A program made the translations under genes and the position numbers. The notes below the pieces were generated by a model. The model searched no databases, was not told the origin of the DNA, and saw only the letters and a list, made by a program, of their open reading frames with translations. Below are positions 1 to 64,000 of a stretch of 64,000 nt of DNA, in pieces. The stretch's first letter is position 1; each line of letters opens with the position of its first letter. Source of the stretch: a virus (Duplodnaviria > Heunggongvirae > Uroviricota > Caudoviricetes); IMG/VR virus record IMGVR_UViG_3300042554_002438; one strand, given 5' to 3'.

Positions 1-68
1 CTGGTTGCGAACAGGAAACCAAGAACAAAATTAATAACGATGCAAATTTTTTTGTCATAACCAAATTT

Positions 69-1599: not shown

Positions 1600-1782
1600 G
1601 ATATATTATTTTTTTGTGTATTTTTTTAAATCCTTTGCTGAAATATTCAACTCACAATTTCCGTGTGCTTTCAATGAAACGAAAATTTCGCCACGCTCGG
1701 TTATCCAGACATTGGTTGCCTTGGTTTTCACACCATCGATGTAAAAATCCTTATCCTTTATGTTTGTTGCGTCTCGCATGTC

Positions 1783-1825
1783 GCAAATATATAACAGGAA
1801 TTTTTAATACGCAAATTTATTTCGT
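1783..1825 (-). promoter_or_regulatory. recurrent AT-rich promoter-like motif (plus-strand form ACAAA-ATAAG ... TTTTTAAT-GCAAATTT)
   Basis: one of at least 12 similar intergenic copies, each placed just upstream of a minus-strand start. Confidence 0.4.
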
Positions 1826-4697: not shown

Positions 4698-4738
4698 GGT
4701 CACAAATATAAAGAAATATTTTTAAATATCCAAATCTT
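4698..4738 (-). promoter_or_regulatory. promoter-like motif copy
   Basis: ggtcacaaatataaagaaatatttttaaatatccaaat immediately upstream of the 4684 start. Confidence 0.35.
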
Positions 4739-6468: not shown

Positions 6469-7920
6469 TTAAATTTTAATCTTTATGTTTTCGATAATTA
6501 AATCACCAGTGTGAATACCGTTATGTTTATAAATTTCAACATGGTATCTGTTAGATGAGTTGACCTCAAATTCAAATTGCATTGTTGGTCTACCGTCAGC
6601 GTTGAGTGTTCTACAACAACCCTTTTCACAAGACTCACCAGGCATTTTATGATCGGCTCCGAAGAAAGACATATAACCCGCGAAGCTCTCAACCATATTC
6701 GGGTGTGCTGTTGTTAATTTATTTCGATTAACGTAAACCTCATAGACACCTTTAGGTATCTTCGTGAATGAAACGGTTAATACTAATTTAACTCTATTTG
6801 GCGCACCTAGCTGGCCACTTGTTGGCGTAACCTGTGTGACAGCATCTGTGATTTGACCATTAATTGGTATGCTGAAATTATTGCTATGTAAAACATTGTT
6901 GTATGCTCTAGCCATCATCGGTTGATCAGCTTTTTCATATACCTCAACATCATCATAATCATAATCAAGTTTGTATATTATCTTTATCACATCTTCCATT
7001 GTATAGGTAACTTTCTTACCATTCTCATCGAAGAAAACATAAGACCAGTCAGCTGATTTTAACATCTCCAATGTAACTTTCTCCCCATTCGGAGAATTAG
7101 TCCATTGCTGCCATAGTCTATCAATGTTTGAGTGATGTGTCCAGAAAACTGGATCAAACCCAGCTGTCGGAACCCAACCCATCAACCCTGTCTCACTAAT
7201 TTTACCAGTGATTGGGTTGTTGAACAACTTACCAGTTTGTACATTACCAGCGCCGATGTAATCGTGCATCGCACCATGTGGGGCATTGTTAATCTGCGAG
7301 TTAAACATTTCGTATGAGGTGTAACTCATTAATTTATCTGTCTCCAAAGCTCTTTGGATTTCACCTGCAATAGGATAACCATAGTTCAAGCTATCAAATC
7401 TACAACGTTCATATAGGGATGATTTCGGATCTCTGAATTTTTCTTGTAAAAATTTGTCGTAGTCAAAATTATTTGTGTAGCCCCAATAAGGTAATGCGAA
7501 ATCTTTATATCCAGACAATTTTCTAACTATCTTTTCTAAATGGTGAATGTATAATCTATGCCAAACCAAGAAATGAATTTTTTCTTTACCACTTGGTGTA
7601 TGTGTACAATTATCCCAAGCTTCTTTTAAATCGGCTGGGGTCTTATAGCTTGGGCACAGTGGGTTATATAAGATTGTGTCGGGAACCCAATGAATTGCAC
7701 CTTGATAATACCAACTCAATGGGTTATCACAAGGCATATTACGCATAATTTTAAAGGCTTTGTCCATGGCTTCAACGTCCATTTGTGCCTCTGGTGTGTG
7801 AATTTCTTTTCGGAGATATCGTTTTCCAACAACATCTCCAACGCTTTCGGTTCTGTCTTTACATGATATTAGCCATAATAGGCCAAACATCAAAATGAAT
7901 AGTATTAATATTTTTTTCAT
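6469..7920 (-). CDS. tyrosinase (type-3 copper oxidase), secreted/lipoprotein
   Basis: CuA signature HFLVWHRLYIHHLE and CuB signature DPVFWTHHSNIDRLW; N-terminal signal peptide ending LISC. Confidence 0.75.
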   Translation of the reverse strand: MKKILILFILMFGLLWLISCKDRTESVGDVVGKRYLRKEIHTPEAQMDVEAMDKAFKIMRNMPCDNPLSWYYQGAIHWVPDTILYNPLCPSYKTPADLKEAWDNCTHTPSGKEKIHFLVWHRLYIHHLEKIVRKLSGYKDFALPYWGYTNNFDYDKFLQEKFRDPKSSLYERCRFDSLNYGYPIAGEIQRALETDKLMSYTSYEMFNSQINNAPHGAMHDYIGAGNVQTGKLFNNPITGKISETGLMGWVPTAGFDPVFWTHHSNIDRLWQQWTNSPNGEKVTLEMLKSADWSYVFFDENGKKVTYTMEDVIKIIYKLDYDYDDVEVYEKADQPMMARAYNNVLHSNNFSIPINGQITDAVTQVTPTSGQLGAPNRVKLVLTVSFTKIPKGVYEVYVNRNKLTTAHPNMVESFAGYMSFFGADHKMPGESCEKGCCRTLNADGRPTMQFEFEVNSSNRYHVEIYKHNGIHTGDLIIENIKIKI

Positions 7921-8131: not shown

Positions 8132-8723
8132 TCAGGTATTGAAACATTTCAAAGTAAGGTTCGGTGGCATACCAAGTAAACCCCAACTTAGTCATGAATT
8201 CCTCATTTTCTTTTTTATACATCTCAAACATACGACTACCAGTCATCTTAGAGTATTGTACATTAGCGATACGATCACATAATTTAACAAATACAGCGCC
8301 TTTGGTATTACGAATACCCTCATAGTATTTGTCATTGGCACGTTCCTTACGGTTCTTACCCTTTTCATTGGTTACAGCATAAATAATCTCAGCCGCTTCC
8401 TGACCCAAAATATCTTTAACATCGTTATATGACACACGACAATCTTCGATCAAATCGTGGCCCCAACAAGCAAGCATACATGCGTGTTTAGTCGAAACCT
8501 GTGTGGTTGGATTAACAACCACATCACCAGTAAAGTATTCTTTATCGTCTAAAAGATGGTTGTACTTCTCACCGACATGGGCCACCATTCTCAAGTGGAA
8601 CTCATACGGTAAGTATGTGTCGTACATGTGGTTTGTTTCATTGTGCTTCTCAATGCACCATTTTTTCTTATCCATAATTTCTCTTGTTGTTACAAAGGTA
8701 AGAAAGAAAAATTTAATAACCAA
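8112..8723 (-). CDS. HD-domain phosphohydrolase
   Basis: H...GHDLIED metal-binding motif of HD hydrolases. Confidence 0.55.
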   Translation of the reverse strand: MVIKFFFLTFVTTREIMDKKKWCIEKHNETNHMYDTYLPYEFHLRMVAHVGEKYNHLLDDKEYFTGDVVVNPTTQVSTKHACMLACWGHDLIEDCRVSYNDVKDILGQEAAEIIYAVTNEKGKNRKERANDKYYEGIRNTKGAVFVKLCDRIANVQYSKMTGSRMFEMYKKENEEFMTKLGFTWYATEPYFEMFQYLSDLFKN

Positions 8724-8726
8724 AAA

Positions 8727-8752
8727 AAGGGGATAATTATTTCTAATTACCC
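8727..8752 (-). terminator. rho-independent terminator (minus strand)
   Basis: ggggataattatttctaattacccc hairpin preceded by an A-run on plus (T-run on minus). Confidence 0.4.
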
Positions 8753-8774
8753 CCCAGCACTTGACATGGCATGC

Positions 8775-13672: not shown

Positions 13673-13690
13673 TTTTTTATTTTTTTAAAT

Positions 13691-13730
13691 GTTGTACAAA
13701 GGTAAGTTAAAATTTTTAAATCACCAAATT
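13691..13730 (-). promoter_or_regulatory. promoter-like motif copy
   Basis: gttgtacaaaggtaagttaaaatttttaaatcaccaaatt just upstream of the flotillin start; near-identical to the copy at 16538. Confidence 0.45.
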
Positions 13731-13741
13731 TTTTTATAAAA

Positions 13742-16518: not shown

Positions 16519-16537
16519 TTTTTTATTTTCTTTAAAT

Positions 16538-16578
16538 GTTGTACAAAGATAAGTTAAAATTTTTAAACCACCAAATTA
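16538..16578 (-). promoter_or_regulatory. promoter-like motif copy
   Basis: tgttgtacaaagataagttaaaatttttaaaccaccaaatt upstream of the prs start. Confidence 0.45.
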
Positions 16579-17849: not shown

Positions 17850-17879
17850 TAATTTTATACAAAGATAGTAATTAATTTT

Positions 17880-18383
17880 TTATTTTCCAAATCCAGTATC
17901 GGTAAAAAATCTGAGCGTCTCGGCCATAAATGTATTTGTATCAAAATTTGGGTCGAATGTTAAATTATCATCCACAATAATATTATCATCCTCATCAACT
18001 TTATATTGGTACATTTCAAAACTGTTTGGGGTAGTTTTTATAGGATCAACTTTAATAATATCACCCTCAAATTGAACCCCACATAGTTCACAAAAATGTA
18101 CAACTTTATAACTATTCGTATCAGGCATTGGGATTAGAATGTCTTTATGTGTTAAACTCATCGCCTTTGAACCATCTTCATTTGTGTGATTGCAACTCAA
18201 TTTTATCTCATAAATTTGTTTTTCATACGAAGTTATGTGATTATTTTTCGATTCGATTAAAATATCAACTTTTTTCTTGAGCTCTCGTTCAATGGAGTTT
18301 AGATCTCGAGTAACCTTTTCTTTATTAATCTCAAGTTCGATTATTTTTTTACGGCCCTCTATAAACGGATTCTTTGATTCCAT
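17880..18383 (-). CDS. hypothetical protein
   Basis: 167 aa with a possible C-x-x-C zinc ribbon. Confidence 0.45.
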   Translation of the reverse strand: MESKNPFIEGRKKIIELEINKEKVTRDLNSIERELKKKVDILIESKNNHITSYEKQIYEIKLSCNHTNEDGSKAMSLTHKDILIPMPDTNSYKVVHFCELCGVQFEGDIIKVDPIKTTPNSFEMYQYKVDEDDNIIVDDNLTFDPNFDTNTFMAETLRFFTDTGFGK

Positions 18384-18825: not shown

Positions 18826-19347
18826 TTAAAATTTAATTCTAAGACCCATTTTTTGCATAGCCAATAATGCCTCGGCGTTACCCATAGCATCATCAACGGG
18901 ATTGTGAGTATGTTTTGTTTTTCTATACAAACGTTTCCACTCCTGGTTCTTACTAGCATCCTTAACCAAACCACAATACAAATCACCGATACGTCTGCCA
19001 GAAAACCCGAATGGGTTTCTACCGCAGTACTTATGCATGTACCAGTTAATCCACTGCCAATCAAAGGCTAAGTTATCGCTGATAAAGGTTGGTTTACCTT
19101 CGGAATTTTTAACTAACCATTTTTCGAACTCGCTCATAACCTCATATGGTTCCCCAAACTGTTCATGCTCAGACCTTGAAAACCCACTGACAGCTAACGC
19201 ATCTGGTTTGTATTGATCAGTTAATGGTCTGATCTTACCATAAAACGTTTTTGATGTGTCGGACACTTTAACAACACCGAAACATACAATTGAATGTGTA
19301 CCAACTAATTCACCATCAGCCTCAACATCCACTACAAAATAACTCAT
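18826..19347 (-). CDS. DEDDh 3'-5' exonuclease (DnaQ-like)
   Basis: VVDVEADGE Exo I motif and HNPVDDAMGNAE Exo III motif. Confidence 0.55.
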   Translation of the reverse strand: MSYFVVDVEADGELVGTHSIVCFGVVKVSDTSKTFYGKIRPLTDQYKPDALAVSGFSRSEHEQFGEPYEVMSEFEKWLVKNSEGKPTFISDNLAFDWQWINWYMHKYCGRNPFGFSGRRIGDLYCGLVKDASKNQEWKRLYRKTKHTHNPVDDAMGNAEALLAMQKMGLRIKF

Positions 19348-19778
19348 ATCTTTACTAATTTTTTAATTTCTCTGTCAATATCGCGCTTTTTAATTGTCTC
19401 GCGTTTATCGTAATTCTTTTTACCCCTAGCAATAGCGATTCTACATTTTATCTTACCAGAACCATTCAAGTAAAACCAAAACGGAACGATTGTTAAACCT
19501 TTTGTCAAACTGTTCTGAATCTTTCGGATTTCTGTTCTGTGTAAAAGTAATTTTTTATCACGATTCTCATCATGACCAAAAAATTCGCTATTTGTGGTTA
19601 TTTTAAAATTTTTGATGAACATTTCGTCATCCTTGATATAGCAAAACGCATCAACTATGCTAATTTTACCATCCTTAATTGCTTTAACTTCAGAGCCAAA
19701 AAGAATAATACCAGCCTCATACTCTTGAAGGTATTCATAATCAAATTTTGCTTTTCTATTTGTAACTAAAGTTTTCAC
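19344..19778 (-). CDS. smpB: SsrA-binding protein SmpB
   Basis: NRKAKFDYEYLQEYEAGIILFGSEVKAIKDGKISIVDAF...KLLLHRTEIRK...IARGKKNYDKRETIKKRD collinear with E. coli SmpB. Confidence 0.85.
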   Translation of the reverse strand: MKTLVTNRKAKFDYEYLQEYEAGIILFGSEVKAIKDGKISIVDAFCYIKDDEMFIKNFKITTNSEFFGHDENRDKKLLLHRTEIRKIQNSLTKGLTIVPFWFYLNGSGKIKCRIAIARGKKNYDKRETIKKRDIDREIKKLVKI

Positions 19779-19811
19779 AATACAAATATAGTAAATGATT
19801 TGAATAAAAAC

Positions 19812-19840
19812 AAAAAAACCCCGTAATTTTTTACGGGGTT
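19812..19840 (-). terminator. rho-independent terminator (minus strand)
   Basis: ccccgtaattttttacgggg hairpin with a flanking A-run on plus (T-run on minus), downstream of the ferritin-like gene. Confidence 0.6.
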
Positions 19841-19864
19841 TAGTTTATTCGATGATACGCTCGA

Positions 19865-23712: not shown

Positions 23713-23921
23713 TTTTTATCATTTGATGAGAGTGAAGAATAACCGAGCAAACCAATTAATACTTTGATACCAAGAGCTTGCCAAAACCCAATCTTTACTA
23801 AGATAGTGGGCATAGCTGGAACCAAACAAAAGTTCCATAACCACATTATAGGTAACGCCAAGATAACCGCTAAAAGAAGCAGTAATCCGATCACAATCAA
23901 GAACGCTAATAATTTTTCCAT
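23709..23921 (-). CDS. small membrane protein
   Basis: 70 aa, hydrophobic. Confidence 0.35.
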   Translation of the reverse strand: MEKLLAFLIVIGLLLLLAVILALPIMWLWNFCLVPAMPTILVKIGFWQALGIKVLIGLLGYSSLSSNDKK

Positions 23922-23964
23922 GTTACAAATATAATATTTTTTTATTTAACAACAAAATTTATTT

Positions 23965-24818: not shown

Positions 24819-25280
24819 TTAACTATTCTTTAATGTACTATCCCAAGCTACATAACAAACTAGATCGTAATTAACTTTACTGGCATCATTGTTCAATATA
24901 TATGGTTCACTTGGTTTAAATTTAACGTATTCGAGTATATCCTCAGCGGGTAATAACTCACTAAGTTGTACTAATTGTTTTAAACTTAATGACTTAAAAA
25001 CCAATTTACTCAACATCAAATTCTCTGGATGGAGTCTACTTGAGAAGTGATAAAAGATATTGTCTTTAGTTACTAAGTGTTCGTTTAAACAATAGTCAAC
25101 CAAATACATGAACCTCAGATCTTTGAACCATTTCGGTATTGCCTGATCATTCACATCAATACCATGGACAATCTTAAATTGAATCTGGTCAATATAAACA
25201 CCACGCTCAAATTTACCAGCAGTCAAGCCGTTAAATGATGGGTTTTTGGGATTCGTGGTTATGTAATTGTTTAAATCCAT
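24819..25280 (-). CDS. hypothetical protein
   Basis: 153 aa ORF. Confidence 0.45.
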   Translation of the reverse strand: MDLNNYITTNPKNPSFNGLTAGKFERGVYIDQIQFKIVHGIDVNDQAIPKWFKDLRFMYLVDYCLNEHLVTKDNIFYHFSSRLHPENLMLSKLVFKSLSLKQLVQLSELLPAEDILEYVKFKPSEPYILNNDASKVNYDLVCYVAWDSTLKNS

Positions 25281-25307
25281 ACCACAAATATAATCAAAAT
25301 TTTTTAA

Positions 25308-26018
25308 TTACAAAACTTTAATGACATTTTCTGGACTAATTGCATGATAATTAGTGCCAACCGTTATTATCTTAATCCCATCAATCTCCATAATAATAGG
25401 TTTTGGGGCATCGTTTGATAAAATCATTAACTCGGAATCATGGGTGTAGCCACACTCAACCAAAGCGGTTGTTAGCCTATGAATAATATAAACGCTGAGG
25501 TAATAATCTAAAACTTTCATATGGTAATTATAATCAAGCTCCTTTTTACCCGTCATACTACCCTGTCCGCTACCATCACATTCTTTACAATCAACAATAC
25601 TCTCGCAACATTCGCACTCAATCTTACCATCACCATCACATGCATAACAATCATCGTATTCATCAATCATTGGAACCGTGTTCAACTTAGTAATTAAATC
25701 ACCTAATTTTACTGGTACATTATTATCCAGTTTCTGGTTCTTTAATACAAATGAAAAATCTGGCATACCATCGGTTTTAATTGTGATCTCATCATCTGGT
25801 ATTTGCTCTTTTGGTACCATAATTAAAAGTCGAGAGTCTGTTGCGCAATAATAATCTTCGTACTCAAAATACGCATTTAGTTTGTCCGCTGCAAACATTT
25901 TAGCTGCATCTAGTAATTTAATCTTACTCATGTTGTCTTTTATTTTTAAATTCTTCAAGTTGTTTTTCCACAATTCTATTCCAATCCATTTCATCGTACT
26001 TTGAGCCAATGGTTCCAA
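25308..26018 (-). CDS. Cys-rich hypothetical protein
   Basis: CYACDGDGKIECECCESIVDCKECDGSGQG zinc-finger-like cluster. Confidence 0.45.
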   Translation of the reverse strand: MEPLAQSTMKWIGIELWKNNLKNLKIKDNMSKIKLLDAAKMFAADKLNAYFEYEDYYCATDSRLLIMVPKEQIPDDEITIKTDGMPDFSFVLKNQKLDNNVPVKLGDLITKLNTVPMIDEYDDCYACDGDGKIECECCESIVDCKECDGSGQGSMTGKKELDYNYHMKVLDYYLSVYIIHRLTTALVECGYTHDSELMILSNDAPKPIIMEIDGIKIITVGTNYHAISPENVIKVL

Positions 26019-27513: not shown

Positions 27514-27811
27514 ATGTCAACCATGGTTTTTTTTGTTGGGTGTTTAGTGCCTCAACTATCTTATTATAATTTTCTTCATAAAATCTTTCACCGTCTTCCG
27601 AATTTGCCCAAAATAGAAATCCTGGTTCAGTCTGCGTCCTCCCCAGGATTTCTTTTGTTGCTCTTCTATCTTTTTTAAGAAATGAAATACTAACATAGTT
27701 CAGTATAAACTTCCCATCAGTCTTTGACCAATACGCCAGTTGGCCAAATTTTTGTTTGTTCTTTACTCTGGCATTTTCAATAATCTCTATTAAAAATTTA
27801 ACATTTCCCAT
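27473..27811 (-). CDS. hypothetical protein
   Basis: 112 aa ORF. Confidence 0.4.
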   Translation of the reverse strand: MGNVKFLIEIIENARVKNKQKFGQLAYWSKTDGKFILNYVSISFLKKDRRATKEILGRTQTEPGFLFWANSEDGERFYEENYNKIVEALNTQQKKPWLTYEYEIKKPEQKEE

Positions 27812-29193
27812 TAACTAGATTCTTCCATATCAACCACACCCGAGTCTTTAACTATACCCTCAAGAACCTTAAACTCAAAAGATTTGTGTTTGTAAATTCT
27901 AGGTACCAGACCAGATTCTAATCTGACACATACACCCTCACGGATATGGGTATCATCGAGCATTGATTTACCTTTAGAATAAATATCAACAAGTTCAGTA
28001 ATCTTGTCATTAAAATCCCTATCACCGTTTATACTTGGATAGGTTAATTCCATTTCAATTCTTCTGAAACGTGTTATCTCTGGAACATGTTTTACACCTA
28101 TCTCATTACATCTTTTAACAACATCATCCCAAGTGTAATCAACTGATTGGCCATCTGGGTTGGTCATTGTCATACGGTACACATAAAAGTCTTGTTGGGC
28201 TGTCGAACAACCATATGAGTAAACCATGTGCTTTTTATCGCCCATGTTGGAATACTGTTTCGTGAATTCCTTATCACCCATTTTACTTGTATCAACAGAT
28301 GGCATGATTGGCGTATTCTCATTCTCATAACCAACAATCTCAAGATAAACAGTCTCACCTTTTCTTAGATTACCTTTGAAAAGAGCGAAAGCTTTATCTC
28401 TTATGGTTGGATCATGGAATTGGGTTGCATTTGATTTAGCCTCCTCCAAAACAACTCTGCGTGTACCAGTTAAATAAGCCCATTCAGTCTCGTTTATCTT
28501 GATACCAAGCTTAATCAATAATCTTTCAAACCAATTTAAATCACGGTCAACCAACACATGCCCAACTCTATGAGAAGTTCCGTGTAGTTTTTCTGTGATG
28601 ACAACCAAATCCTCACGATTTATTTGATGTACATTCTTACCAAAATGTTCGGTATCAATATGTTCCTTGAACATAACCGAAGTTTTTGCCACTCTGGTTT
28701 TTTTACCTTGGTTTTGTTGAGCGGCTTTTATTGTGTTCGGGTTGATGTACTTATTACAAATTGGTACACCACCCCATTCATCAATCTCAAGACCCTCATC
28801 AACCAGACCAGTCACATAAATGAAACCAAAACTGTGTAATGGTGTCCAGAAACCATCTGAGATTTCCCCACGAAATCTCTGGGCCCTAACCCTACGGTTA
28901 TCATCAAACATACCAGCTTTATCATCTGGGAATTTGTTCTTTGTTTTATCTCGATATAAGTTATTCGCATGGCAAAACTCATGAGATAACTGACCATCAC
29001 ATGGGAAGTATACCCCCCAATGATCTTCTTTGCAATCTAAACCAACCACCACTTGATTACCGTGGCATGTCGCTAATTGCACCTTATCCGCATTAGGATG
29101 CGGTCTAACGTTTTTAAGTTTTGTTACTATTCCTTTATACATATTTTTTACTTTGATTCTACCATTACGTAAGTACCCTCTACCATACCCCAT
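27811..29193 (-). CDS. ATP-dependent RNA ligase (Rnl2/Rnl5-like) with an N-terminal OB/tRNA-binding-like domain
   Basis: nucleotidyltransferase motif I ITEKLHGTSHRV (KxHGxx, as in T4 Rnl2 EKIHGTN); N-terminal ...RPHPNADKVQLATC... resembles tRNA-binding OB folds. Confidence 0.6.
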   Translation of the reverse strand: MGYGRGYLRNGRIKVKNMYKGIVTKLKNVRPHPNADKVQLATCHGNQVVVGLDCKEDHWGVYFPCDGQLSHEFCHANNLYRDKTKNKFPDDKAGMFDDNRRVRAQRFRGEISDGFWTPLHSFGFIYVTGLVDEGLEIDEWGGVPICNKYINPNTIKAAQQNQGKKTRVAKTSVMFKEHIDTEHFGKNVHQINREDLVVITEKLHGTSHRVGHVLVDRDLNWFERLLIKLGIKINETEWAYLTGTRRVVLEEAKSNATQFHDPTIRDKAFALFKGNLRKGETVYLEIVGYENENTPIMPSVDTSKMGDKEFTKQYSNMGDKKHMVYSYGCSTAQQDFYVYRMTMTNPDGQSVDYTWDDVVKRCNEIGVKHVPEITRFRRIEMELTYPSINGDRDFNDKITELVDIYSKGKSMLDDTHIREGVCVRLESGLVPRIYKHKSFEFKVLEGIVKDSGVVDMEESS

Positions 29194-29440: not shown

Positions 29441-29480
29441 TAAGGTACAAAGATAGTGATTATTTTTTTAATTCGCAAAT
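29441..29480 (-). promoter_or_regulatory. promoter-like motif copy
   Basis: aggtacaaagatagtgattatttttttttaattcgcaaat. Confidence 0.4.
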
Positions 29481-29506
29481 AAAAAAACCCCACAGAGGGG
29501 GTTTTT
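29480..29506 (-). terminator. rho-independent terminator (bidirectional hairpin)
   Basis: A7-ccccacagaggggg-T6; downstream of the thioredoxin gene. Confidence 0.6.
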
Positions 29507-30704: not shown

Positions 30705-31286
30705 TTATTGATTAATGTTGAAGGCTCGATCATATGCCCCATCTAGTATAATCTTTTTATGGAGTTTCATTGTTATTTCAGCATCATATAAAGCATTATG
30801 TTGACCACCATTCTTATCCAAGCCAAGTATTAGGTGCCTATTTTTTTTAGGATCGTGATACCAAATCTTTAAAACTGTTGCCATATCATATGGTTGATAT
30901 CCGTTAAAATTATTTGGTAATTTTCTGGACGGTTCTCCCATAAAATATAAATCCATGAATAAAACCCAATCAAAAGCTAAAGTATCACCCCAAAACTCAA
31001 TATCCTTAAATTGTTTTAACCAAGTAACTAAAGCATCTGATATTGTTTGTTTATCTTGTTTTATGGTGAAGGATTTATTCTCCTCGTCATTTTCAAAAAA
31101 ATGAACGTATTCGGAATATGTGAGCTTGGGTATAACATTATCTTTAATCCATTGGTCACATTGTGATTCATCGTAGTCATTAAATTCAGCGTAAAATTTA
31201 TGACCATTTTCTGTTATCATCCCTAAAGAAATGGGTGTGGTTGCTTTATGCAAACCAGTAAATTCAAAATCAAAAAATATTCTCAT
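30705..31286 (-). CDS. DEDDh 3'-5' exonuclease
   Basis: FFDFEFTGL Exo I motif and HNALYDAEIT Exo III motif. Confidence 0.65.
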   Translation of the reverse strand: MRIFFDFEFTGLHKATTPISLGMITENGHKFYAEFNDYDESQCDQWIKDNVIPKLTYSEYVHFFENDEENKSFTIKQDKQTISDALVTWLKQFKDIEFWGDTLAFDWVLFMDLYFMGEPSRKLPNNFNGYQPYDMATVLKIWYHDPKKNRHLILGLDKNGGQHNALYDAEITMKLHKKIILDGAYDRAFNINQ

Positions 31287-31310
31287 GGTACAAATATAGG
31301 TTATTTATTT

Positions 31311-31727
31311 TTATTTAGCAACTTTATTTAATTTTAATACAAATTCAGTTAAATCAGTCGTATTGTAATTAGCCATTTTCTCATCAATCGAACCATTAAT
31401 AGAATCTTTAATTAAATTGTAATTTTCTTCTTTTAAAAATTTCAAAGACTCATCATCAGACCATATTTTATCGCCCCAGGGATGTATAAAAAATTGTTTC
31501 AAAGTCATATTGATTGTTGGTACTGGTTGTTTATGACCAGCAACAATTTCAGGTATTCCTATTTCTTCGGTTAAGTAAAAAAATAGAATCGCTTTACGCT
31601 CACTAAGAATGGTGATTAATTCTTCCATCTTTGGAAGAGCTAAACGATCGTGTATATTGCGATGATGATTAATCGTTCTATGTAAATCGTTTAGCTTTTC
31701 TACAACCTGTTCGTTTGTATAAAACAT
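31311..31727 (-). CDS. hypothetical protein
   Basis: 138 aa ORF. Confidence 0.45.
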   Translation of the reverse strand: MFYTNEQVVEKLNDLHRTINHHRNIHDRLALPKMEELITILSERKAILFFYLTEEIGIPEIVAGHKQPVPTINMTLKQFFIHPWGDKIWSDDESLKFLKEENYNLIKDSINGSIDEKMANYNTTDLTEFVLKLNKVAK

Positions 31728-33809: not shown

Positions 33810-33816
33810 AATTTTT

Positions 33817-33858
33817 TTTACAAAGATAAGAATAAAATTTTTAATATGCAAATTTATG
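33817..33858 (-). promoter_or_regulatory. promoter-like motif copy
   Basis: tacaaagataagaataaaatttttaatatgcaaattt. Confidence 0.4.
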
Positions 33859-34369
33859 AAAAAGTTAAAATTATATCCTTAACGGTATCATCGTTTGTGT
33901 GTGTCCTGGCCGTTAATAACTTATACTTCTCAAAAAATGGGTCGTACTCTGATGAAAAATATTGATATTTATTCAACTCGTCTATATTTTTCGCAAAATA
34001 TTCATTGACCATAATTCTTTCACTTGATGTGGTCTGCATAAGCATTATGTAAACCAAGAAACCATCATCAGTTGTTAAAAAAACAACGTTATTTTTAAAA
34101 TTGATTGATATGAAATTTAAAAAATCGTCATTAATCATACCCGAATATTTGAATGGGCATAATTTATACAGAACACCCATCTGGCCAATCAATATCGGTT
34201 GTATTTCTTGATTAAAAGAATTGGTGATAAATATATTATCACCATTTTCTTCAAGGATTTTTGCAAAAAAAATATCCTTGAACACATTCTTATTTAAGTC
34301 AATATAATACTTTATGATTTTGTTAAAAGCCTCATCAAAAAATTTTGGATCTTTCATTTTAACCATCAA
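33854..34369 (-). CDS. hypothetical protein
   Basis: 171 aa ORF. Confidence 0.45.
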   Translation of the reverse strand: MMVKMKDPKFFDEAFNKIIKYYIDLNKNVFKDIFFAKILEENGDNIFITNSFNQEIQPILIGQMGVLYKLCPFKYSGMINDDFLNFISINFKNNVVFLTTDDGFLVYIMLMQTTSSERIMVNEYFAKNIDELNKYQYFSSEYDPFFEKYKLLTARTHTNDDTVKDIILTFS

Positions 34370-35460
34370 CTTATCGCATATATTCTTTTTCTAAAACGAA
34401 TTAACAAGTCGTCAACAAATTTTCTATCAACAGAATTAGGTAGATCTGATTTTGCGTAAAGGTCATCCAAAAGTGTGATTTTTGATTCCGCTTCGGCAAG
34501 AAGATCCTCATATTCAGCATCACCATTTCTTATTTTAAGTAATTCCTCAGCATCTGGTCTTTTGACGATCACTTGTTTAAGTTCGGCAATCTCGGTTGCC
34601 ATACGTATCAACCTAATACAGTGCATCATATTTTTTGAATCATAACCCTTACCATGTTCTTGGTTTGTGTTATATCGATCGTCATTACGCTTTTCAACCC
34701 AATCCCAGTATTCCTTATAATCTTTACAGTAAGAAGTATAACCATCCTTGTTATAGATAATTGTCGCAACTGGCTTTTCGCCAAATGGAATGGAACTTAA
34801 TCTAACCTCATTCGATGTGTCATCATCATTGACGATGCCACGATAACCGAGCCTAGAATTTTCTTTACTGGCGTAATGATCATAAAACATGGCGTATACA
34901 TCTCTGGCATGTGGTACATTAACCAAACCACATTTGTTCTGTACATAACCACTATTGTCCAAAAATGCTTTGAGTGGGATCGATTTATAACCATCGACAA
35001 CATAGCAAAAATCCAATATAGATTTGCGCTCTTTGTCAACTGGGTTTACAATTTTTTTGTTTAACCCGCGAGCTTTTTTAATTTGTGCGACAGCGTACCC
35101 ACCAAATGAATCGCGGCAAACTTTACTGATGAACTTATCCTTATGTTGTAGAATCATATCAAACATTGGGTGTTTGTAAAGTATATTCTCTTCGGGCATA
35201 TTGAATAACTCAATTATGTTTGGGTTTTGCGATTGTAATAATTGCAAGAACCTACCAATCTCATAGTAGACAGCATCATTTGTGGCATCCGAAACTTGTT
35301 CAATATAGTCATATCCCAGTACGTTATCAAGCGGTAAGTAGTAAACTCCACGATAATCGGTATCGGATGTTGGTTTGTGTGTACCATACGCCCTTGATCC
35401 AGATATTGTTTCAAACAATAAAAGTCCATTCGTTCTTAAATAATCTATCGTTAATCGCAT
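34366..35460 (-). CDS. Pol-beta-superfamily nucleotidyltransferase (RlaP-like; RNA-repair associated)
   Basis: GSRAYGTHKPTSDTDYRGV = GS...[DE]x[DE] nucleotidyltransferase motif with a helical C-terminal domain. Confidence 0.5.
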   Translation of the reverse strand: MRLTIDYLRTNGLLLFETISGSRAYGTHKPTSDTDYRGVYYLPLDNVLGYDYIEQVSDATNDAVYYEIGRFLQLLQSQNPNIIELFNMPEENILYKHPMFDMILQHKDKFISKVCRDSFGGYAVAQIKKARGLNKKIVNPVDKERKSILDFCYVVDGYKSIPLKAFLDNSGYVQNKCGLVNVPHARDVYAMFYDHYASKENSRLGYRGIVNDDDTSNEVRLSSIPFGEKPVATIIYNKDGYTSYCKDYKEYWDWVEKRNDDRYNTNQEHGKGYDSKNMMHCIRLIRMATEIAELKQVIVKRPDAEELLKIRNGDAEYEDLLAEAESKITLLDDLYAKSDLPNSVDRKFVDDLLIRFRKRIYAIS

Positions 35461-35936: not shown

Positions 35937-35948
35937 ACCTTATTTTTC

Positions 35949-35989
35949 AACAAAGATACGCAAATATTTTTAATTCGCAAATTTTTTTG
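35949..35989 (-). promoter_or_regulatory. promoter-like motif copy
   Basis: caacaaagatacgcaaatatttttaattcgcaaattttttt, 12 nt upstream of the ATG at 35936. Confidence 0.45.
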
Positions 35990-37616: not shown

Positions 37617-37658
37617 GTTTTTTTTGTAAATTTAAGAAAAAAAAATCAGAAAGTCAAG

Positions 37659-38108: not shown

Positions 38109-38497
38109 TAAAATTTAAAATTGAACTTATTTTCGAAATCTTTCTTTGTGACTGTATTAATACTCGAAACAATTTCATTTGGGATAACCACAATTATACC
38201 GTATGAACGGGAGAATTTTTCACAATACCCCATATATTTGTTGGTAATTTTTCGCCCCTCGATTAAATCAAAATATACTTTACCATTGATAATAAACTCT
38301 GGTTTCATCAAAACCGTTTCGGTAATAAAAAACACCTCGTTATTTGGTTGTATCGTTAAACCATTGTCAACACACCACTGGTTTAATATGTGGTAATTAC
38401 CCATCTGGCCTCGTTTAACACCCGTAAAAACTTTAAGTTTTTCTGACATAGTGAATATTTTTTTTACAAATATAAATATAATCCAAAAAAATTCCAT
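38108..38497 (-). CDS. hypothetical protein
   Basis: 129 aa ORF. Confidence 0.45.
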   Translation of the reverse strand: MEFFWIIFIFVKKIFTMSEKLKVFTGVKRGQMGNYHILNQWCVDNGLTIQPNNEVFFITETVLMKPEFIINGKVYFDLIEGRKITNKYMGYCEKFSRSYGIIVVIPNEIVSSINTVTKKDFENKFNFKF

Positions 38498-38521
38498 ACC
38501 TTTGCGTGATATTTATGTAAA

Positions 38522-40606
38522 ATGGCACAAAAAGTATCATATACAGGGGTTTTCTTGGACAAGGATTCAAGAGCCGTATTAGAAAAAGAGTTCAAATCGC
38601 AGGTTCCTGATGGATGGGAGTGGATTGCGCATCATATGACCATAACTTTAGGGGAAATGGTTGATAAATCGGAATTGGGTAAACAAGTTGCCCTTAATAT
38701 AGTTTCATTTGGTAAAGATGATAAAGTCATGGCAATTGGTGTCAAGGGTTACCCTAGTAAAAATGAAAAACCGCACATTACTTTAGCCGTTAATCGCGCT
38801 GAGGGTGGTAAACCTTATATGAGTAATTTAATTAAGGAATGGGTACCATACTCGATCGGTGCCATATTAACTGGTGTTGTCAGTGAATACCCGCCACAAT
38901 CTAAAGAAACACTTAATGAAGCTTATGATATTAAATCATTACCGTTCTATAACGATGTTATCAATAAAAACGGTAAAATATATCAGGTTGGTGGGGCTGT
39001 TAGAGATTTGTATCTGGGTAAACAATCTAAAGACCTTGACATCGTTATTAGTGGAATACCAGCTAAGGAACTCGAAGATGTGTTGAAAAAATATGGTAAA
39101 GTTGATATGGTTGGTGCGTCATTTGGTGTTATTAAGTTCACACCACCAGATGGTGAAGAAATTGATATTGCAATACCAAGAACTGAAAAGAAGAGTGGTG
39201 TTGGTTATCAGGGTTTTGATGTGTCGGCTGATCACACTCTCCCTATCGAAAAGGATCTTGAGAGAAGAGATTTCACAATAAATTCAATCGCTAAAGATAG
39301 TGATGGGAATGTTATTGATCCATTCGGTGGGTTAAAGGATCTTGATTCGAAGGTTATCAAATTAACAAACCCTAAGGCTTTTTCAGATGACCCATTAAGG
39401 ATGTTAAGGGCGATTCAATTTGCGTCTAGGTTTGGTTTTAAAATAGATGAGGAAACGTTTGATGCTATTAAAAAGAATGCGATGACTATTGACGAAATAT
39501 CAAAAGAGAGAATATTGATAGAGTTTGATAAAATCGTAAACAAAGGTAATCCCAGAGTCGGAGCTGAGTTATTAGTTTCAAGTGGATTGTACAGGGGCAT
39601 ATTCGGTACCGAGTTTGATGGTGATTTTGAACCGTTTGACCAAGTAACTAGGAACAGTGAGTTCGCTTACTGGTTGATCCAATCGTTCACCGAACAACCA
39701 GACCAATACTATAAGAATATAATGAAAGGTGACATCGATACGGCTAGAGAGATATCAGCTTTGGCTTATATGTATAACAACTTACCTGGTAACGACAAAG
39801 CAAAACAAAGATTTGTTTATTTTAATATAAATAAGATATCACCACAGATGTTTAATAGTAATTTCGTGAGAAGTATATTGAGTGATGTTATCAATGACTT
39901 TGATTCTCAAAAATACCCAGCTGGTTATTCGGATTTAAAAGTCAATGGTAATGATTTAATGGCAATGGGTTTAAAAGGTAAAGCTGTTGGTGATATGTTA
40001 AATAAATTAATCTCTGCAATATATTCTGATAAAATTGAAAATACAAAGAATGGTTTGTTGGGTTTTGTTGAGAGGAATAAGGATATGTTAAATGAATCTG
40101 TTGGTGGTACAAATAAGAATAGAGTTGTGTTTTATGATTTTGATGGTACTTTAATGGATAGTCCACTTCCTGACACAGGTAAACAAATCTATAAAGAAAA
40201 AACTGGTAATGTATACCCACATCAAGGTTGGTGGGGTCGTGCTGAGAGTTTGGATTTAAATGTCTTCGACATAAAAACAAATCCAGATGTTGAGGCTAAA
40301 TTTAGAGCTGACTCATCGGATCCAAATACGCATGTTGTTTTATTAACCAATAGGTTGTCAAAACTTGAGGAACCAATTAAAAAAGTTCTTGACAAACATA
40401 ATATGGTATTCGATTTTTATTCTTTTAAAAATGATGGTCGTGAAAAGGGTGAACGTGTTTTGGATATTTTAGCCAAAGTATATCCGAATACGAATGAAAT
40501 TGAATTTTATGATGACGATGAGCGACACATTCAAAATGTAAGAGATAATTTAATCGACACCGATTACGATTTCAAGGTGAATCAAGTTATTGATGGTAGA
40601 TTATAA
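38522..40606 (+). CDS. tri-domain RNA end-healing enzyme: 2H phosphoesterase, CCA-adding nucleotidyltransferase (class II) and HAD 3'-phosphatase
   Basis: N-terminal HHMTIT and PHITLA = two H-x-T/S-x motifs of 2H/LigT CPDases; middle GGAVRDLYLG...DLDIV...RRDFTIN...DPFGGLKDL...DPLRMLRAIQFA = CCA-adding/poly(A) polymerase head domain; C-terminal VVFYDFDGTLMD (DxDGT), LLTNR and YDDDERH = HAD phosphatase motifs as in the T4 Pnkp C-domain. Confidence 0.8.
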   Translation: MAQKVSYTGVFLDKDSRAVLEKEFKSQVPDGWEWIAHHMTITLGEMVDKSELGKQVALNIVSFGKDDKVMAIGVKGYPSKNEKPHITLAVNRAEGGKPYMSNLIKEWVPYSIGAILTGVVSEYPPQSKETLNEAYDIKSLPFYNDVINKNGKIYQVGGAVRDLYLGKQSKDLDIVISGIPAKELEDVLKKYGKVDMVGASFGVIKFTPPDGEEIDIAIPRTEKKSGVGYQGFDVSADHTLPIEKDLERRDFTINSIAKDSDGNVIDPFGGLKDLDSKVIKLTNPKAFSDDPLRMLRAIQFASRFGFKIDEETFDAIKKNAMTIDEISKERILIEFDKIVNKGNPRVGAELLVSSGLYRGIFGTEFDGDFEPFDQVTRNSEFAYWLIQSFTEQPDQYYKNIMKGDIDTAREISALAYMYNNLPGNDKAKQRFVYFNINKISPQMFNSNFVRSILSDVINDFDSQKYPAGYSDLKVNGNDLMAMGLKGKAVGDMLNKLISAIYSDKIENTKNGLLGFVERNKDMLNESVGGTNKNRVVFYDFDGTLMDSPLPDTGKQIYKEKTGNVYPHQGWWGRAESLDLNVFDIKTNPDVEAKFRADSSDPNTHVVLLTNRLSKLEEPIKKVLDKHNMVFDFYSFKNDGREKGERVLDILAKVYPNTNEIEFYDDDERHIQNVRDNLIDTDYDFKVNQVIDGRL

Positions 40607-43460: not shown

Positions 43461-43505
43461 GTGATACAAATATAAGCACAGTTTTTTAAATAAGCAAGTT
43501 TTTTT
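43461..43505 (-). promoter_or_regulatory. promoter-like motif copy
   Basis: gtgatacaaatataagcacagttttttaaataagcaagttttttt. Confidence 0.4.
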
Positions 43506-43682: not shown

Positions 43683-44525
43683 CTACCTGTTGGTGGGGAT
43701 TAAGTTATTTAAATATTCTCTATTTTGAGTAAAGATTGGTGTTTCGACATCCAATTCCCAAGCGCTTCTGGTGTAAACATCCTTTGGATCAATCACAACC
43801 GTATCACGATTGACTTCCGCATTGGCACTTTTACGAACAAACGTCTTTTCAATTTTTCTGATTATACCACCACGTTTTTCTCTTGGTGAGTAATCATTCC
43901 AATTTGTACCAGCCTGAAATATCAATTCTTGCATACCATCGGTCTTAACCCCATGTAATTGTTTTGGTGAGTATAAACTCTGAGCGACCGATGAAATTGA
44001 ATTTCTGGTCGCATCTTGTTGTCTCCAGATGAAATAATTCTCAACCTCAACTTTTTGTGGGATTTGAAATACCCTGGCATCAAACATAGCCAATTTAGGT
44101 TCGCTGGCGTATCTTTTATCCGTCACAGACTTTCTCTCGATAACATGTAGATTCTTAATATAACGATCCATTCTCAATTTATTAAAGATGGCTGTTGCCA
44201 TTGAGGCTGAAACGCTCGCCATTTTCTGTAAGTTATTATCGAACCAAGCTTGTGTGCCCTCATCTTCAAAATCGGTGATCAAAATTGAAATCTCATCTGA
44301 TTGCACATACGCAAACTTAGCACCCATAATGTTTTTACATAGATATGCCGCTGTCTCATCCATATCATCAATCAAATCCAAATCAAATGGCCTTCTCAAA
44401 CCTTTTGTATAGGTGTGAAAAGCCTTACCATCAATTCTGATAATGGTGTAACCTCTTCTTGGTAATGAAATACGAGTTCTATCCTCATAGTTCGATTTCA
44501 TTCTGTCTCCTAATGCGTCTTTCAT
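43683..44525 (-). CDS. Thg1-like protein (tRNA-His guanylyltransferase / 3'-5' nucleotidyltransferase family)
   Basis: RIDGKAFH, YVQSDEISIL (conserved QSDE catalytic motif) and FIWRQQD collinear with Thg1 (RLDGRNFH, YGQSDEYSF, LSWRQAD). Confidence 0.75.
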   Translation of the reverse strand: MKDALGDRMKSNYEDRTRISLPRRGYTIIRIDGKAFHTYTKGLRRPFDLDLIDDMDETAAYLCKNIMGAKFAYVQSDEISILITDFEDEGTQAWFDNNLQKMASVSASMATAIFNKLRMDRYIKNLHVIERKSVTDKRYASEPKLAMFDARVFQIPQKVEVENYFIWRQQDATRNSISSVAQSLYSPKQLHGVKTDGMQELIFQAGTNWNDYSPREKRGGIIRKIEKTFVRKSANAEVNRDTVVIDPKDVYTRSAWELDVETPIFTQNREYLNNLIPTNR

Positions 44526-45045: not shown

Positions 45046-45107
45046 CCACCTCTCCAATATTTCACAAATATAAGAATAAAAATGTTAATTAACAAGTTTA
45101 TTTTTGG

Positions 45108-45386: not shown

Positions 45387-45515
45387 TAACTCTATGTTCT
45401 TTAGTTTAACATAAATTAGGCAATACTAACCCAGCCCAGTTTTTCACCGAGATATGTTTAATTGACTTAATAATGTTAACCATTGTGTTCATTTTACTGA
45501 TTTTTAAATATATAG

Positions 45516-45556
45516 TGCAAAAGTAAGCAAAGTTTTTTAAATATGCAAGTTTTTTC
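45516..45556 (-). promoter_or_regulatory. promoter-like motif copy
   Basis: gtgcaaaagtaagcaaagttttttaaatatgcaagtttttt. Confidence 0.4.
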
Positions 45557-52794: not shown

Positions 52795-53247
52795 CTATTT
52801 TAGGGCCTCAAATTCCATTTCTTCTGGAGTTAATAAACCCTTATTATATTTCTGAACTCGATCGAAATACCTTTGTTTTACTTTACTAGATATTGGTATC
52901 GGGTTACCTTCTTCGTCAATTCTAACAAATTTAATATTTGTGTATGTCACAATTTCTTGTGTGCCCGTGTGAACATTGTGTTTTCTAACTTCAATATATA
53001 GGGATAACGATGTTTTACCAAACTCTAAAACTTTACCATAAATTTTAAGCAAATTATTAACCTTAACTGGTTTTTTAAAAACCAGTTGATCAATCATAAT
53101 AGTAACAACTCTTGGGGTATCACAAATCTGAGCGGCGTAAGCTGCTGATGCGTCATCTATTAATGACACCAAAGTACCCCCGAACATATTATCATGGACT
53201 CCAATGTCGCCTTTTTTACAGATATACGTTGTGATTAATTCCATGCG
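52795..53247 (-). CDS. hotdog-fold acyl-CoA thioesterase
   Basis: MELITTYICKKGDIGVHDNMFGGTLVSLIDDASAAYAA; start reassigned to the second Met because the longer ORF (to 53373) would run through the terminator and the tmRNA 3' end. Confidence 0.55.
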   Translation of the reverse strand, partial: RMELITTYICKKGDIGVHDNMFGGTLVSLIDDASAAYAAQICDTPRVVTIMIDQLVFKKPVKVNNLLKIYGKVLEFGKTSLSLYIEVRKHNVHTGTQEIVTYTNIKFVRIDEEGNPIPISSKVKQRYFDRVQKYNKGLLTPEEMEFEALK

Positions 53248-53280
53248 ACAATAGTAATAAAAAATGTGGATAAAACAAAT

Positions 53281-53310: not shown

Positions 53311-53319
53311 AAATTTCTG

Positions 53320-53820: not shown

Positions 53821-53861
53821 TTTACACCACAATATTACGAAATTATTTTTAAAAAACAAAA

Positions 53862-54434
53862 TTATTTTCTAAATAGAAACGCATTTTTTATTCCAGGTAT
53901 CATTGATTCAGAATAAAATGAAATATTTTCTTTTAAACCGTAATATGTTTTAAAATTAATCACGTTATCTTCATTATCTTTTTTTATTGAAAATAAAAAT
54001 GGTGCGTGTGTTTCAAATTCTTTTATTTCATATGTTAAATTATATTTTTTGATTAAATCGTTAACAGCGGTTACCGATCCAGTAAAATAATAATCAACAT
54101 CAAAACCTAATGATGTTATATCATAACCAATTATTACAAAATTTAAATTATCATCATTATTGAGATAATCAGCGTAAATTTTTATACCCACAATATTTTC
54201 ATGTTCATCTGTTTTAATCGCATATTGTTTAAATACTGGTTTATCTAATATATTAAACATAGCATTAATATCATGAACTCTACTTTGTAAGTCATCAATA
54301 TTGTCTATCAAATAATATTGGCTGTTAAGTTTTTCAGTTGTGGTTAAAAACTTAGCAAAGTTATTATCCCCAGTTGATGCCTTTACATCACCATTCAGAT
54401 CAATGTAAAAATCTTTGAAGTCTGTTATTTCCAT
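53862..54434 (-). CDS. hypothetical protein
   Basis: 190 aa ORF. Confidence 0.45.
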   Translation of the reverse strand: MEITDFKDFYIDLNGDVKASTGDNNFAKFLTTTEKLNSQYYLIDNIDDLQSRVHDINAMFNILDKPVFKQYAIKTDEHENIVGIKIYADYLNNDDNLNFVIIGYDITSLGFDVDYYFTGSVTAVNDLIKKYNLTYEIKEFETHAPFLFSIKKDNEDNVINFKTYYGLKENISFYSESMIPGIKNAFLFRK

Positions 54435-54472
54435 AAAACAAATATAAACAATTTTTTTTAAAAAACAAATGT

Positions 54473-55070: not shown

Positions 55071-55117
55071 TGCGATACAAAGATAAGAAATGTTTTTTTA
55101 ATAAACAAGTATTTTTG
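55071..55117 (-). promoter_or_regulatory. promoter-like motif copy
   Basis: gcgatacaaagataagaaatgtttttttaataaacaagtatttttg. Confidence 0.4.
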
Positions 55118-63995: not shown

Positions 63996-64000
63996 ATTAT

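Follow-up and report, generated by a model that had tools for sequence, protein, structure and literature searches.

Which RNA polymerase reads the A/T-rich motif of about 40 bp that stands in front of many genes of an uncultured phage? The question arises at positions 13691-13730 of a 64,000-nucleotide stretch of phage DNA, hereafter called the window, where the initial annotation had proposed a candidate phage promoter, repeated in at least 12 copies upstream of minus-strand genes. In our analysis the repeated 40-bp motif, judged by its sequence, is almost certainly a promoter. From the observed sequence match, spacing, enrichment, coupling of strand and orientation, start-codon geometry and phylum specificity we infer that ~21-25 such promoters are very probably recognised by the host RNA polymerase equipped with the primary sigma factor of Bacteroidota (sigma-A, 'sigma-ABfr').

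The window is 100% identical to positions 229,225-293,224 of the JGI metagenome contig 3300042475|Ga0453895_0000002 (298,717 bp), and the same phage is present on many other metagenome contigs. Its G+C content is ~35% and ~97 of the 111 long ORFs are located on the minus strand. It is an auxiliary region, devoted to tRNAs, tmRNA/SmpB, NAD salvage, RNA repair and nucleotide metabolism. Besides 27 tRNA genes and one tmRNA gene, the latter found by Rfam while ARAGORN reported none, it contains genes of NAMPT, a phosphoribosyltransferase-like protein, an SPFH protein, RNA ligase, RlaP, Thg1, a CCA-adding/'Swiss-army-knife' enzyme, SmpB, ClpP, thioredoxin, DHFR, adenylosuccinate synthase, IMPDH/GMP reductase, sugar-modifying enzymes and an endolysin. 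Among deposited phages, only Tenacibaculum phage PTm1/PTm5 matches at the DNA level, in its NAMPT gene (75% identity). A 99.8%-identical contig that extends beyond the right end of the window carries, on the reverse strand, the gene of ribosomal protein bS21, which marks freshwater huge phages predicted to infect Bacteroidetes/Flavobacterium; the published description of this bS21 group does not mention promoters (PMC9723584). The host is thus probably a member of Bacteroidota, class Flavobacteriia.

The motif is present at all 12 positions listed initially, in each case on the minus strand, which is that of the genes. The number given there holds as a minimum but is an undercount, as the window contains 21 core copies and four variants whose downstream box deviates at one base (61042, 53837, 53256 and 37634), all on the minus strand (Table 1). 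The nine core copies beyond the original list have the T of their TA at 57245, 54446, 45072, 31298, 25292, 23933, 19790, 17867 and 8700. The core motif consists of (T/C)TTG, an A/T-tract spacer of 18-20 nt and TA(T/C)HTTTG(TA). When the copies are aligned on the downstream block, they read a.aaA-(T/C)TTG, three variable bases, aTTaAAAAatt, about 8 bases and cT-TA(T/C)HTTTG-TA, with the register and the content of the spacer varying among copies. The distance between TTG and TA is 20 nt in 17 of the 21 core copies, 19 nt in three and 18 nt in one. TTG of the upstream (-33) box is present in every core copy, as TTTG in 15, CTTG in five and GTTG in one, and the downstream (-7) box TAHHTTTG is exact in 20 of 21, with no G at -10/-9, the exception being the copy at 57245 with A at -8.

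Table 1. Promoter copies in the window, all on the minus strand; positions of the -7 boxes are given from the T of TA to the final G
Feature	Coordinates (strand)	-33 box and spacer	-7 box	Downstream gene and context
Flagged promoter copy	13692..13728 (-)	TTTG 13728-13725, 20-nt spacer	TACCTTTG 13704-13697	predicted +1 13692; 24-nt A-rich leader, ATG 13672 (-), 620-aa SPFH/Band-7 protein
Promoter copy	16539..16575 (-)		TATCTTTG 16551-16544	ATG 16518, 323-aa phosphoribosyltransferase-like protein; near-duplicate of the 13704 promoter-plus-leader cassette
Promoter copy	1779..1815 (-)		TATATTTG 1791-1784	ATG 1779 on predicted +1; predicted leaderless 57-aa ORF 1606-1779
Promoter copy	4698..4734 (-)		TATATTTG 4710-4703	18-nt leader, ATG 4684, 184-aa DUF7296 protein
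Promoter copy	8688..8724 (-)	TTTG from T-run of upstream terminator hairpin 8755-8728	TACCTTTG 8700-8693	ATG 8675, HD-type phosphohydrolase
Promoter copy	17855..17891 (-)		TATCTTTG 17867-17860	predicted +1 5 nt before tRNA-Met 5' end (17849)
Promoter copy	19778..19814 (-)		TATATTTG 19790-19783	abuts strong terminator hairpin 19841-19816; SmpB GTG start 19778 on predicted +1
Promoter copy	23921..23956 (-)	19-nt spacer	TATATTTG 23933-23926	ATG 23921 on predicted +1, 70-aa ORF
Promoter copy	25280..25314 (-)	18-nt spacer	TATATTTG 25292-25285	ATG 25280 on predicted +1, 153-aa ORF
Promoter copy	29443..29479 (-)		TATCTTTG 29455-29448	directly after terminator hairpin; 18-nt leader, ATG 29429, 93-aa ORF, then RNA ligase
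Promoter copy	31286..31322 (-)	GTTG	TATATTTG 31298-31291	ATG 31286 on predicted +1, 193-aa RNase H/exonuclease-like protein
Promoter copy	33816..33852 (-)		TATCTTTG 33828-33821	11-nt leader, ATG 33809; mechanical TTG start 33851 is the -33 box
Promoter copy	35946..35981 (-)	19-nt spacer	TATCTTTG 35958-35951	14-nt leader, ATG 35936, 161-aa protein
Promoter copy	43462..43498 (-)	CTTG	TATATTTG 43474-43467	upstream of 32-aa ORF and tRNA cluster 43248-42681
Promoter copy	45060..45096 (-)	CTTG	TATATTTG 45072-45065	predicted +1 4 nt before tRNA-Ser 5' end (45055)
Promoter copy	45513..45549 (-)	CTTG	TACTTTTG 45525-45518	upstream of 28-aa ORF and tRNA cluster 45342-45105
Promoter copy	54434..54469 (-)	19-nt spacer	TATATTTG 54446-54439	directly after tRNA-Gln; ATG 54434 on predicted +1, 190-aa ORF
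Promoter copy	55073..55109 (-)	CTTG	TATCTTTG 55085-55078	~275-nt leader, tRNA cluster 54798-54471
Promoter copy, one -7 mismatch	57233..57269 (-)		TATTATTG 57245-57238	directly after tRNA; 19-nt leader, ATG 57218, 116-aa protein, weak HTH match
Promoter copy	60733..60769 (-)		TACTTTTG 60745-60738	~330-nt leader, tRNA-Phe/Thr cluster (60404 downward)
Promoter copy	60833..60869 (-)		TACATTTG 60845-60838	directly after terminator hairpin; 100 nt upstream of the 60745 copy
Probable variant promoter	53244..53280 (-)	TTTG-N20	TACTATTG 53256-53249	just after tmRNA gene; ATG 53244 (public gene-call start, 149-aa 4HBT thioesterase) on predicted +1
Probable variant promoter	53825..53860 (-)	TTTG-N19	TAATATTG 53837-53830	upstream of tRNA-Leu (53810) and tmRNA gene (53695-53317)
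Possible variant promoter	37622..37658 (-)	CTTG-N20	TAAATTTA, A for G at -5	10-nt A-rich leader, ATG 37616
Possible variant promoter	61030..61065 (-)	CTTG-N19	TATATTTA 61042-61035	upstream of small ORF

Sequences of this kind might arise as a by-product of A/T-rich intergenic DNA, or be a short dispersed repeat without promoter function. The intergenic DNA is indeed very A/T-rich and two of the copies are recent duplicates, but the distribution of the motif leaves this explanation with next to no credence. The arrangement TTTG-N17-23-TANNTTTG occurs 18 times, a number reached in no shuffle that keeps dinucleotide content (5.2 ± 2.0). For the two-box pattern TTG-N18-20-TAHHTTTG chance predicts 2.6 ± 1.6 matches on each strand, and we count 22 in gene sense and 4 in antisense. 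Twenty of the 22 gene-sense matches precede an ORF, a tRNA or a leader, while the two intragenic ones (26339 and 8993) both lack the A/T spacer. A weight-matrix scan (≥12 bits) yields 20 matches on the minus strand and none on the plus strand, and the invariant positions of the matrix are the G and C ones (TTG, TTTG). The motif also changes strand together with the genes: in the 10 kb to the left of the window, where genes lie on both strands, two plus-strand copies precede plus-strand genes and five of six minus-strand copies are located upstream of minus-strand genes. Two further copies are found to the right of the window. Finally, the distance to the start codon is quantised at 4 nt, as described below. 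We therefore keep to the reading of the motif as a regulatory element, a promoter, which was the reading of the initial annotation too. It is well supported by the strand bias and position of the copies, by the coupling of their orientation to that of the genes and by the geometry of the start sites.

Sites of the E. coli -35/-10 type are not enriched in the window (67 found and 76.8 ± 9.1 expected in one scan, 89 and 100.5 ± 10.3 in another). As a candidate second promoter class in the gaps without the main motif we considered TATTTAT(A), and rejected it: 20 occurrences on the minus and 18 on the plus strand, with equal enrichment in A/T-rich gaps on both strands.

The primary sigma factor of Bacteroidota recognises TTTG at -33 and TAnnTTTG at -7, and transcription starts 4-5 nt after the -7 box (PMC6847099; PMC9723704; PMC2483708). 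RNA-seq of Flavobacterium johnsoniae refined this picture: T-12, A-11, T-8, T-7, T-6 and G-5 are nearly invariant, G is absent from -10/-9, and A/T-rich elements at ~-18 and ~-28 are normal in Flavobacterium promoters (PMC6847099). The -33 box is non-essential, yet required for full activity (PMC2483708). In sequence comparison the phage copies follow all these published rules as regards boxes, spacing and the lack of G at -10/-9. The earlier remark that the motif is unlike the sigma-70 -35/-10 elements is correct for the E. coli consensus, but element by element the motif matches the primary-sigma promoter of Bacteroidota.

According to the mechanism that we propose, region 4 of sigma would contact (T)TTG at -36 to -33 and region 2 would contact TAnnTTTG at -12 to -5, the A-tract/T-tract spacer (~-29 to -15) would correspond to the A/T-rich elements of Flavobacterium promoters, and RNA synthesis would begin 5 nt past the final G of the -7 box. 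Three kinds of transcripts would be produced: leaderless ones with the start codon on +1, those with an A-rich leader of 11-25 nt devoid of Shine-Dalgarno sequence and of the Flavobacterium 'TAAAA' type, and precursor RNAs running into the tRNA clusters and the tmRNA gene. As only the holoenzyme of the uninfected host would be needed, with no phage factor, expression of the auxiliary region from these promoters is most likely early or constitutive. The copies also look like strong promoters, because the -33 box, needed for full activity (PMC2483708), is kept in the phage copies.

The position of start codons relative to the -7 box can be compared with this scheme. In six core copies (54446, 31298, 25292, 23933, 19790 and 1791) and in variant 53256 the start codon begins on the predicted +1, exactly 4 nt downstream of G-5; in each case this codon is either the earliest possible start of its ORF or the one chosen in the public gene call, and for the GTG-initiated ORF the SmpB profile alignment starts at residue 5. 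The gap amounts to 11-25 nt in nine other core copies and to 39 nt at 43474, and for several copies the next feature is not an ORF but a tRNA gene or a non-coding leader. The rule formulated initially, 12-25 A/T-rich nt followed by the start codon, hence describes the group of nine (with 11 nt as its lower end) and not the remaining copies. This geometry predicts six to seven leaderless mRNAs, including the GTG-initiated one of SmpB. The base at the predicted +1 of the 21 core copies is A in 17 and G in two (purine in 19/21), and in front of two tRNA genes (copies 17867 and 45072) the predicted +1 is placed four to five nt before the mature 5' end. The same box-to-start geometry was found in ~584 kb of Bacteroidota chromosomal DNA, with eight cases at 4 nt and none at 5 nt; leaderless starts make up 4/17 in the phage and 8/103 in the host sample, which is no significant excess (p=0.07).

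Translation start regions follow the pattern of Bacteroidota as well. A Shine-Dalgarno-like tetramer is present in only 4 of 81 ATG genes, A occupies -3 in 63% of them and is also enriched at ~-13 to -9; start regions lacking Shine-Dalgarno sequences and enriched in A are typical for Bacteroidota (PMC6847099). The phage leaders carry the 'TAAAA' element described for Flavobacterium (PMC2483708). Two TTG 'ORF starts' had been noticed inside motif copies and taken as a sign of regulatory function, and they can now be assigned: the one at 29450 belongs to a -7 box and the one at 33851 to a -33 box. Gene starts placed at these two codons and at TTG 8723 should be moved to downstream ATGs.

Four copies (8700, 19790, 29455 and 60845) directly follow an intrinsic terminator, whose T-run supplies the TTTG of the -33 box, and three others (45072, 54446 and 57245) directly follow a tRNA gene. 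Because of these locations the motifs mark the boundaries of transcription units of ~3 kb.

The suggestion of the initial annotation, a phage-directed polymerase or sigma factor, deserves separate consideration. Under it a sigma factor or RNA polymerase encoded by the phage would recognise the motif, whose likeness to host promoters would be coincidental or a result of mimicry. Many jumbo phages encode their own polymerases, and the part inspected here comprises ~84 kb of the 299-kb genome. The phage copies are, moreover, more uniform than host promoters. With a uniform start-codon-based filter, which replaced a six-frame 'open frame' filter biased against sites with short leaders, TTG at -33 accompanies 65% of the candidate -7 promoters of the window and 24% of those in a sample of Bacteroidota chromosomes (p=0.0015). 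Conservation of the spacer is likewise higher in the phage copies than in the host sample, and the two-box pattern is ~5 times denser in the phage, with 22 in 64 kb vs 4 extra in an equal length of DNA from Flavobacteriia. The closer conservation of the -33 box and the spacer could reflect selection for strength or an extra factor.

Against a phage-encoded enzyme stand the boxes, the spacing and the implied start site, all of them those of the primary promoter of the host phylum. We scanned one genome per prokaryotic species with the extended pattern TTTGN4TTAAAAAN9TANNTTTGTA, and 79 of the 118 classifiable loci among the matches listed belong to Bacteroidota or their nearest relatives (Ignavibacteria, Kapabacteria). 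Bacteroidota constitute about a tenth of the species in one-genome-per-species collections. Among the matches listed, loci of the Bacteroidota group are more GC-rich than the other ones (0.40 vs 0.33) and more often non-coding (76% vs 49%, p=0.004). Scans of 30 window proteins, combined with precomputed Pfam hits for the gene calls, revealed no sigma or RNA-polymerase domain among the called genes of the window and ~20 kb of flanks (the ~84 kb mentioned above), and the only promoter found directly before tRNA genes is the host-type one. Recognition by a phage-encoded sigma factor or polymerase is, in our estimation, very unlikely. A phage sigma factor mimicking host specificity, or a phage modifier of the host polymerase, could conceivably act at these sites.

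A comparator with a known Flavobacteriia host agrees with recognition by the host holoenzyme: PTm1 displays the same two-box architecture, with 15 gene-sense and 4 antisense matches in 40 kb. As only three genes are shared in 40 kb, PTm1 was rejected as a close relative and is used solely as a known-host comparator.

The conserved spacer suggests yet another explanation, in which the segment aTTaAAAAatt, partly palindromic (TTAAAAATTTTAA), would be an operator where a phage or host DNA-binding protein switches host-type promoters on or off. Such an arrangement would resemble T4 middle promoters, in which a promoter is combined with the site of a regulator, the activator box. The greater conservation of the spacer in the phage than in the host sample speaks for it, and so does the behaviour of relatives, which swap the upstream half of the promoter, so that this half is exchangeable. 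These distant relatives retain the -7 box but carry another upstream box, TTTTTAATnCCG, at a distance of exactly 11 nt from it; the TTTTTAATnCCG-N11 box occurs 5 times in one contig (L004) with 0.06 expected, and is found in three others (L013, L016 and L007), while the window has none. However, A/T-rich elements at ~-18/~-28 belong to ordinary Flavobacterium promoters (PMC6847099), the register and content of the spacer differ among copies, and the same TTAAAAA spacer is found in Bacteroidota chromosomal promoters. An operator in the spacer is possible but unnecessary, and as an explanation of the motif we regard it as highly improbable.

The relatives with the TTTTTAATnCCG box share the NAMPT-SPFH module. 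By analogy, their TTTTTAATnCCG-N11 recalls the activator box that T4 middle promoters use in sigma appropriation, and it is conceivable, though unlikely, that the phage lineage uses the upstream half of its promoters to tune or re-target host sigma-A. Should a phage factor indeed read the TTTTTAATnCCG box, Bacteroidota phages would gain their first described promoter-switching system of this kind.

The two-box motif itself occurs in relatives too. Thirty viral contigs with the SPFH gene are loosely related to the window (1-8 shared genes per 20 kb), and gene-sense matches outnumber antisense ones 11 to 0 in L021 and 4 to 0 in each of L023 and L024. Upstream of the orthologous SPFH gene, the motif was found in only a few of 27 related viral contigs (L002/L003, L021 and L024), the others having no promoter or other sequences there. 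Promoter sites turn over, and for this reason the position upstream of SPFH is not usable as a test of conservation.

With recognition by the host holoenzyme as the preferred reading, the motif adds another example to a well-known class of promoters and reveals no new mechanism of transcription. The sigma-A promoters of Bacteroides fragilis, F. johnsoniae and F. psychrophilum resemble it in both boxes, the lack of G at -10/-9, the A/T-rich spacer, A-rich TAAAA leaders without Shine-Dalgarno sequence, occasional leaderless mRNAs and a start 4-5 nt after the box, the last deduced here from start codons. The phage differs from them by the frequency of TTG at -33, the ~5-fold density and a spacer almost fixed at 20 nt.

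Early promoters of T4 (also of T5, and A1-A3 of T7) are strong host sigma-70 promoters placed on a phage genome. The present motif may be regarded as their counterpart: it is similarly of near-consensus host type with extra conserved A/T-rich positions, would be usable by the unmodified host polymerase, and is repeated many times in one orientation before auxiliary and tRNA genes, but the sigma specificity differs, being -33/-7 instead of -35/-10, and no sign of T4-like modifiers of the host polymerase was seen. Promoters of phage polymerases or sigma factors (T7 class, N4, the non-virion RNAP of phiKZ/AR9, T4 late TATAAATA) are unrelated to the primary promoter of the host and usually form a single block. 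They share with our motif the repetition of a short conserved sequence upstream of many phage genes, whereas the present one is the two-block promoter of the host. In the Cellulophaga crAss-like phage phi14:2, middle promoters are transcribed by the rifampicin-sensitive host RNAP; their motif was described as resembling -35/-10 and worked with the E. coli sigma-70 holoenzyme, while early genes use a virion RNAP (bioRxiv 10.1101/2020.03.07.982082). This phage has a Flavobacteriia host and likewise a conserved multi-part, sense-oriented intergenic promoter motif, but of -35/-10-like type in contrast to the canonical -33/-7 found here, and no virion RNAP is known for the present phage.

The analysis maps ~25 promoter sites along 64 kb of the genome of a jumbo phage that is uncultured and widespread in freshwater, and provides sequence-based evidence for a host from Bacteroidota, probably Flavobacteriia. 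It also suggests that phage tRNA clusters and tmRNA are wired to the host polymerase. The near-consensus copies are candidate strong and compact promoter parts for Flavobacterium genetics.

The copies at 13691 and 16538, reported initially as near-identical over 40 nt, indeed differ at only 2 of 40 bases, and the similarity runs through the leader to ATG, which reflects a recent duplication of a cassette. In a 97.9%-identical strain (L153) a promoter-less spacer of 33 nt is located where the window has the 57-nt promoter-plus-leader cassette of the 16551 copy. Cassettes with a common promoter and leader are found in the left flank as well, where two of eight copies are of the leaderless type. 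The phage copies behave as mobile promoter-plus-leader cassettes. At the 19790 copy, the 97.9%-identical strain keeps both boxes and both spacings, while changes are seen in spacer bases and in the 4 nt that precede the start codon.

In the window phage, the T-run of a strong intrinsic-terminator hairpin itself serves as the -33 TTTG of the following promoter at the terminator-promoter fusions listed in the table. The TTG starts at 8723, 29450 and 33851, proposed by mechanical ORF calling, are artefacts located within promoters, and the real starts are likely the ATGs at 8675, 29429 and 33809, respectively. The GTG start codon of the SmpB ORF is placed on the predicted +1 of its promoter, and its mRNA therefore appears, from the sequence, to carry a leaderless GUG start. 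Three promoters with long leaders (about 280-330 nt) into tRNA clusters have in common the initial transcribed sequence TA(C/T)C(A/G)CAATT(G/C).

Promoter presence also varies between strains. The promoter-plus-leader cassette at 16519-16575 of the window phage is 57 nt long and nearly duplicates that at 13673-13741, while the 97.9% identical strain L153 has in its place a 33-nt spacer without a promoter (7122-7154). In loosely related viral contigs sharing the SPFH gene (L004/L005/L014/L026, L013, L016 and L007) the -7 box, TA(T/C)nTTT(G/A), is retained and the upstream box differs, being TTTTTAATnCCG located exactly 11 nt 5' of the -7 box. This pairing occurs five times in L004 versus 0.06 expected, and is absent from the window. 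TTTTTAATnCCG could represent a different promoter class or an activator box.

Coordinates of the features (window positions unless stated otherwise)
Feature	Position	Strand	Evidence
Terminator-promoter fusions	8728-8755; 19816-19841; ~29480-29505; ~60870-60895	-	
Conserved initial transcribed sequence	60838-60815; 60738-60715; 55078-55055	-	
SmpB gene, full-length	19344-19778	-	PF01668, 162.8 bits
tmRNA gene	53317-53695	-	Rfam RF00023, 78.8 bits
RNA/tRNA repair and maturation set	27811-29193; 34366-35460; 38522-40606; 43683-44525	+ (38522-40606)	
Ribosomal protein bS21 gene	L157 2460-2699 (~7.5 kb past position 64000)	reverse	PF01165

By sequence match, both halves of trans-translation, tmRNA and SmpB, are phage-encoded; ARAGORN made no call at the tmRNA gene despite the Rfam match. 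The repair and maturation genes form a dense set beside the tRNA clusters and encode RNA ligase, an RlaP nucleotidyltransferase, a fusion of a CCA-adding enzyme with a HAD 'Swiss-army-knife' domain, and Thg1. The CCA-enzyme gene is among the few on the plus strand, and is preceded only by a -7 box, TACCTTTG at 38497-38504, without a -33 TTG. In the region 57442-60252, where G+C is about 0.46 versus 0.35 overall, tRNA genes are separated by long unannotated spacers of 130-680 nt, with no Rfam family reaching its gathering score; the spacers may represent fragments of tRNAs, introns or RNAs of an unknown kind.

The bS21 gene lies on L157, a contig 99.8% identical to the window phage, and ties this phage to the freshwater huge phages encoding bS21, whose predicted hosts are Bacteroidetes (PMC9723584).
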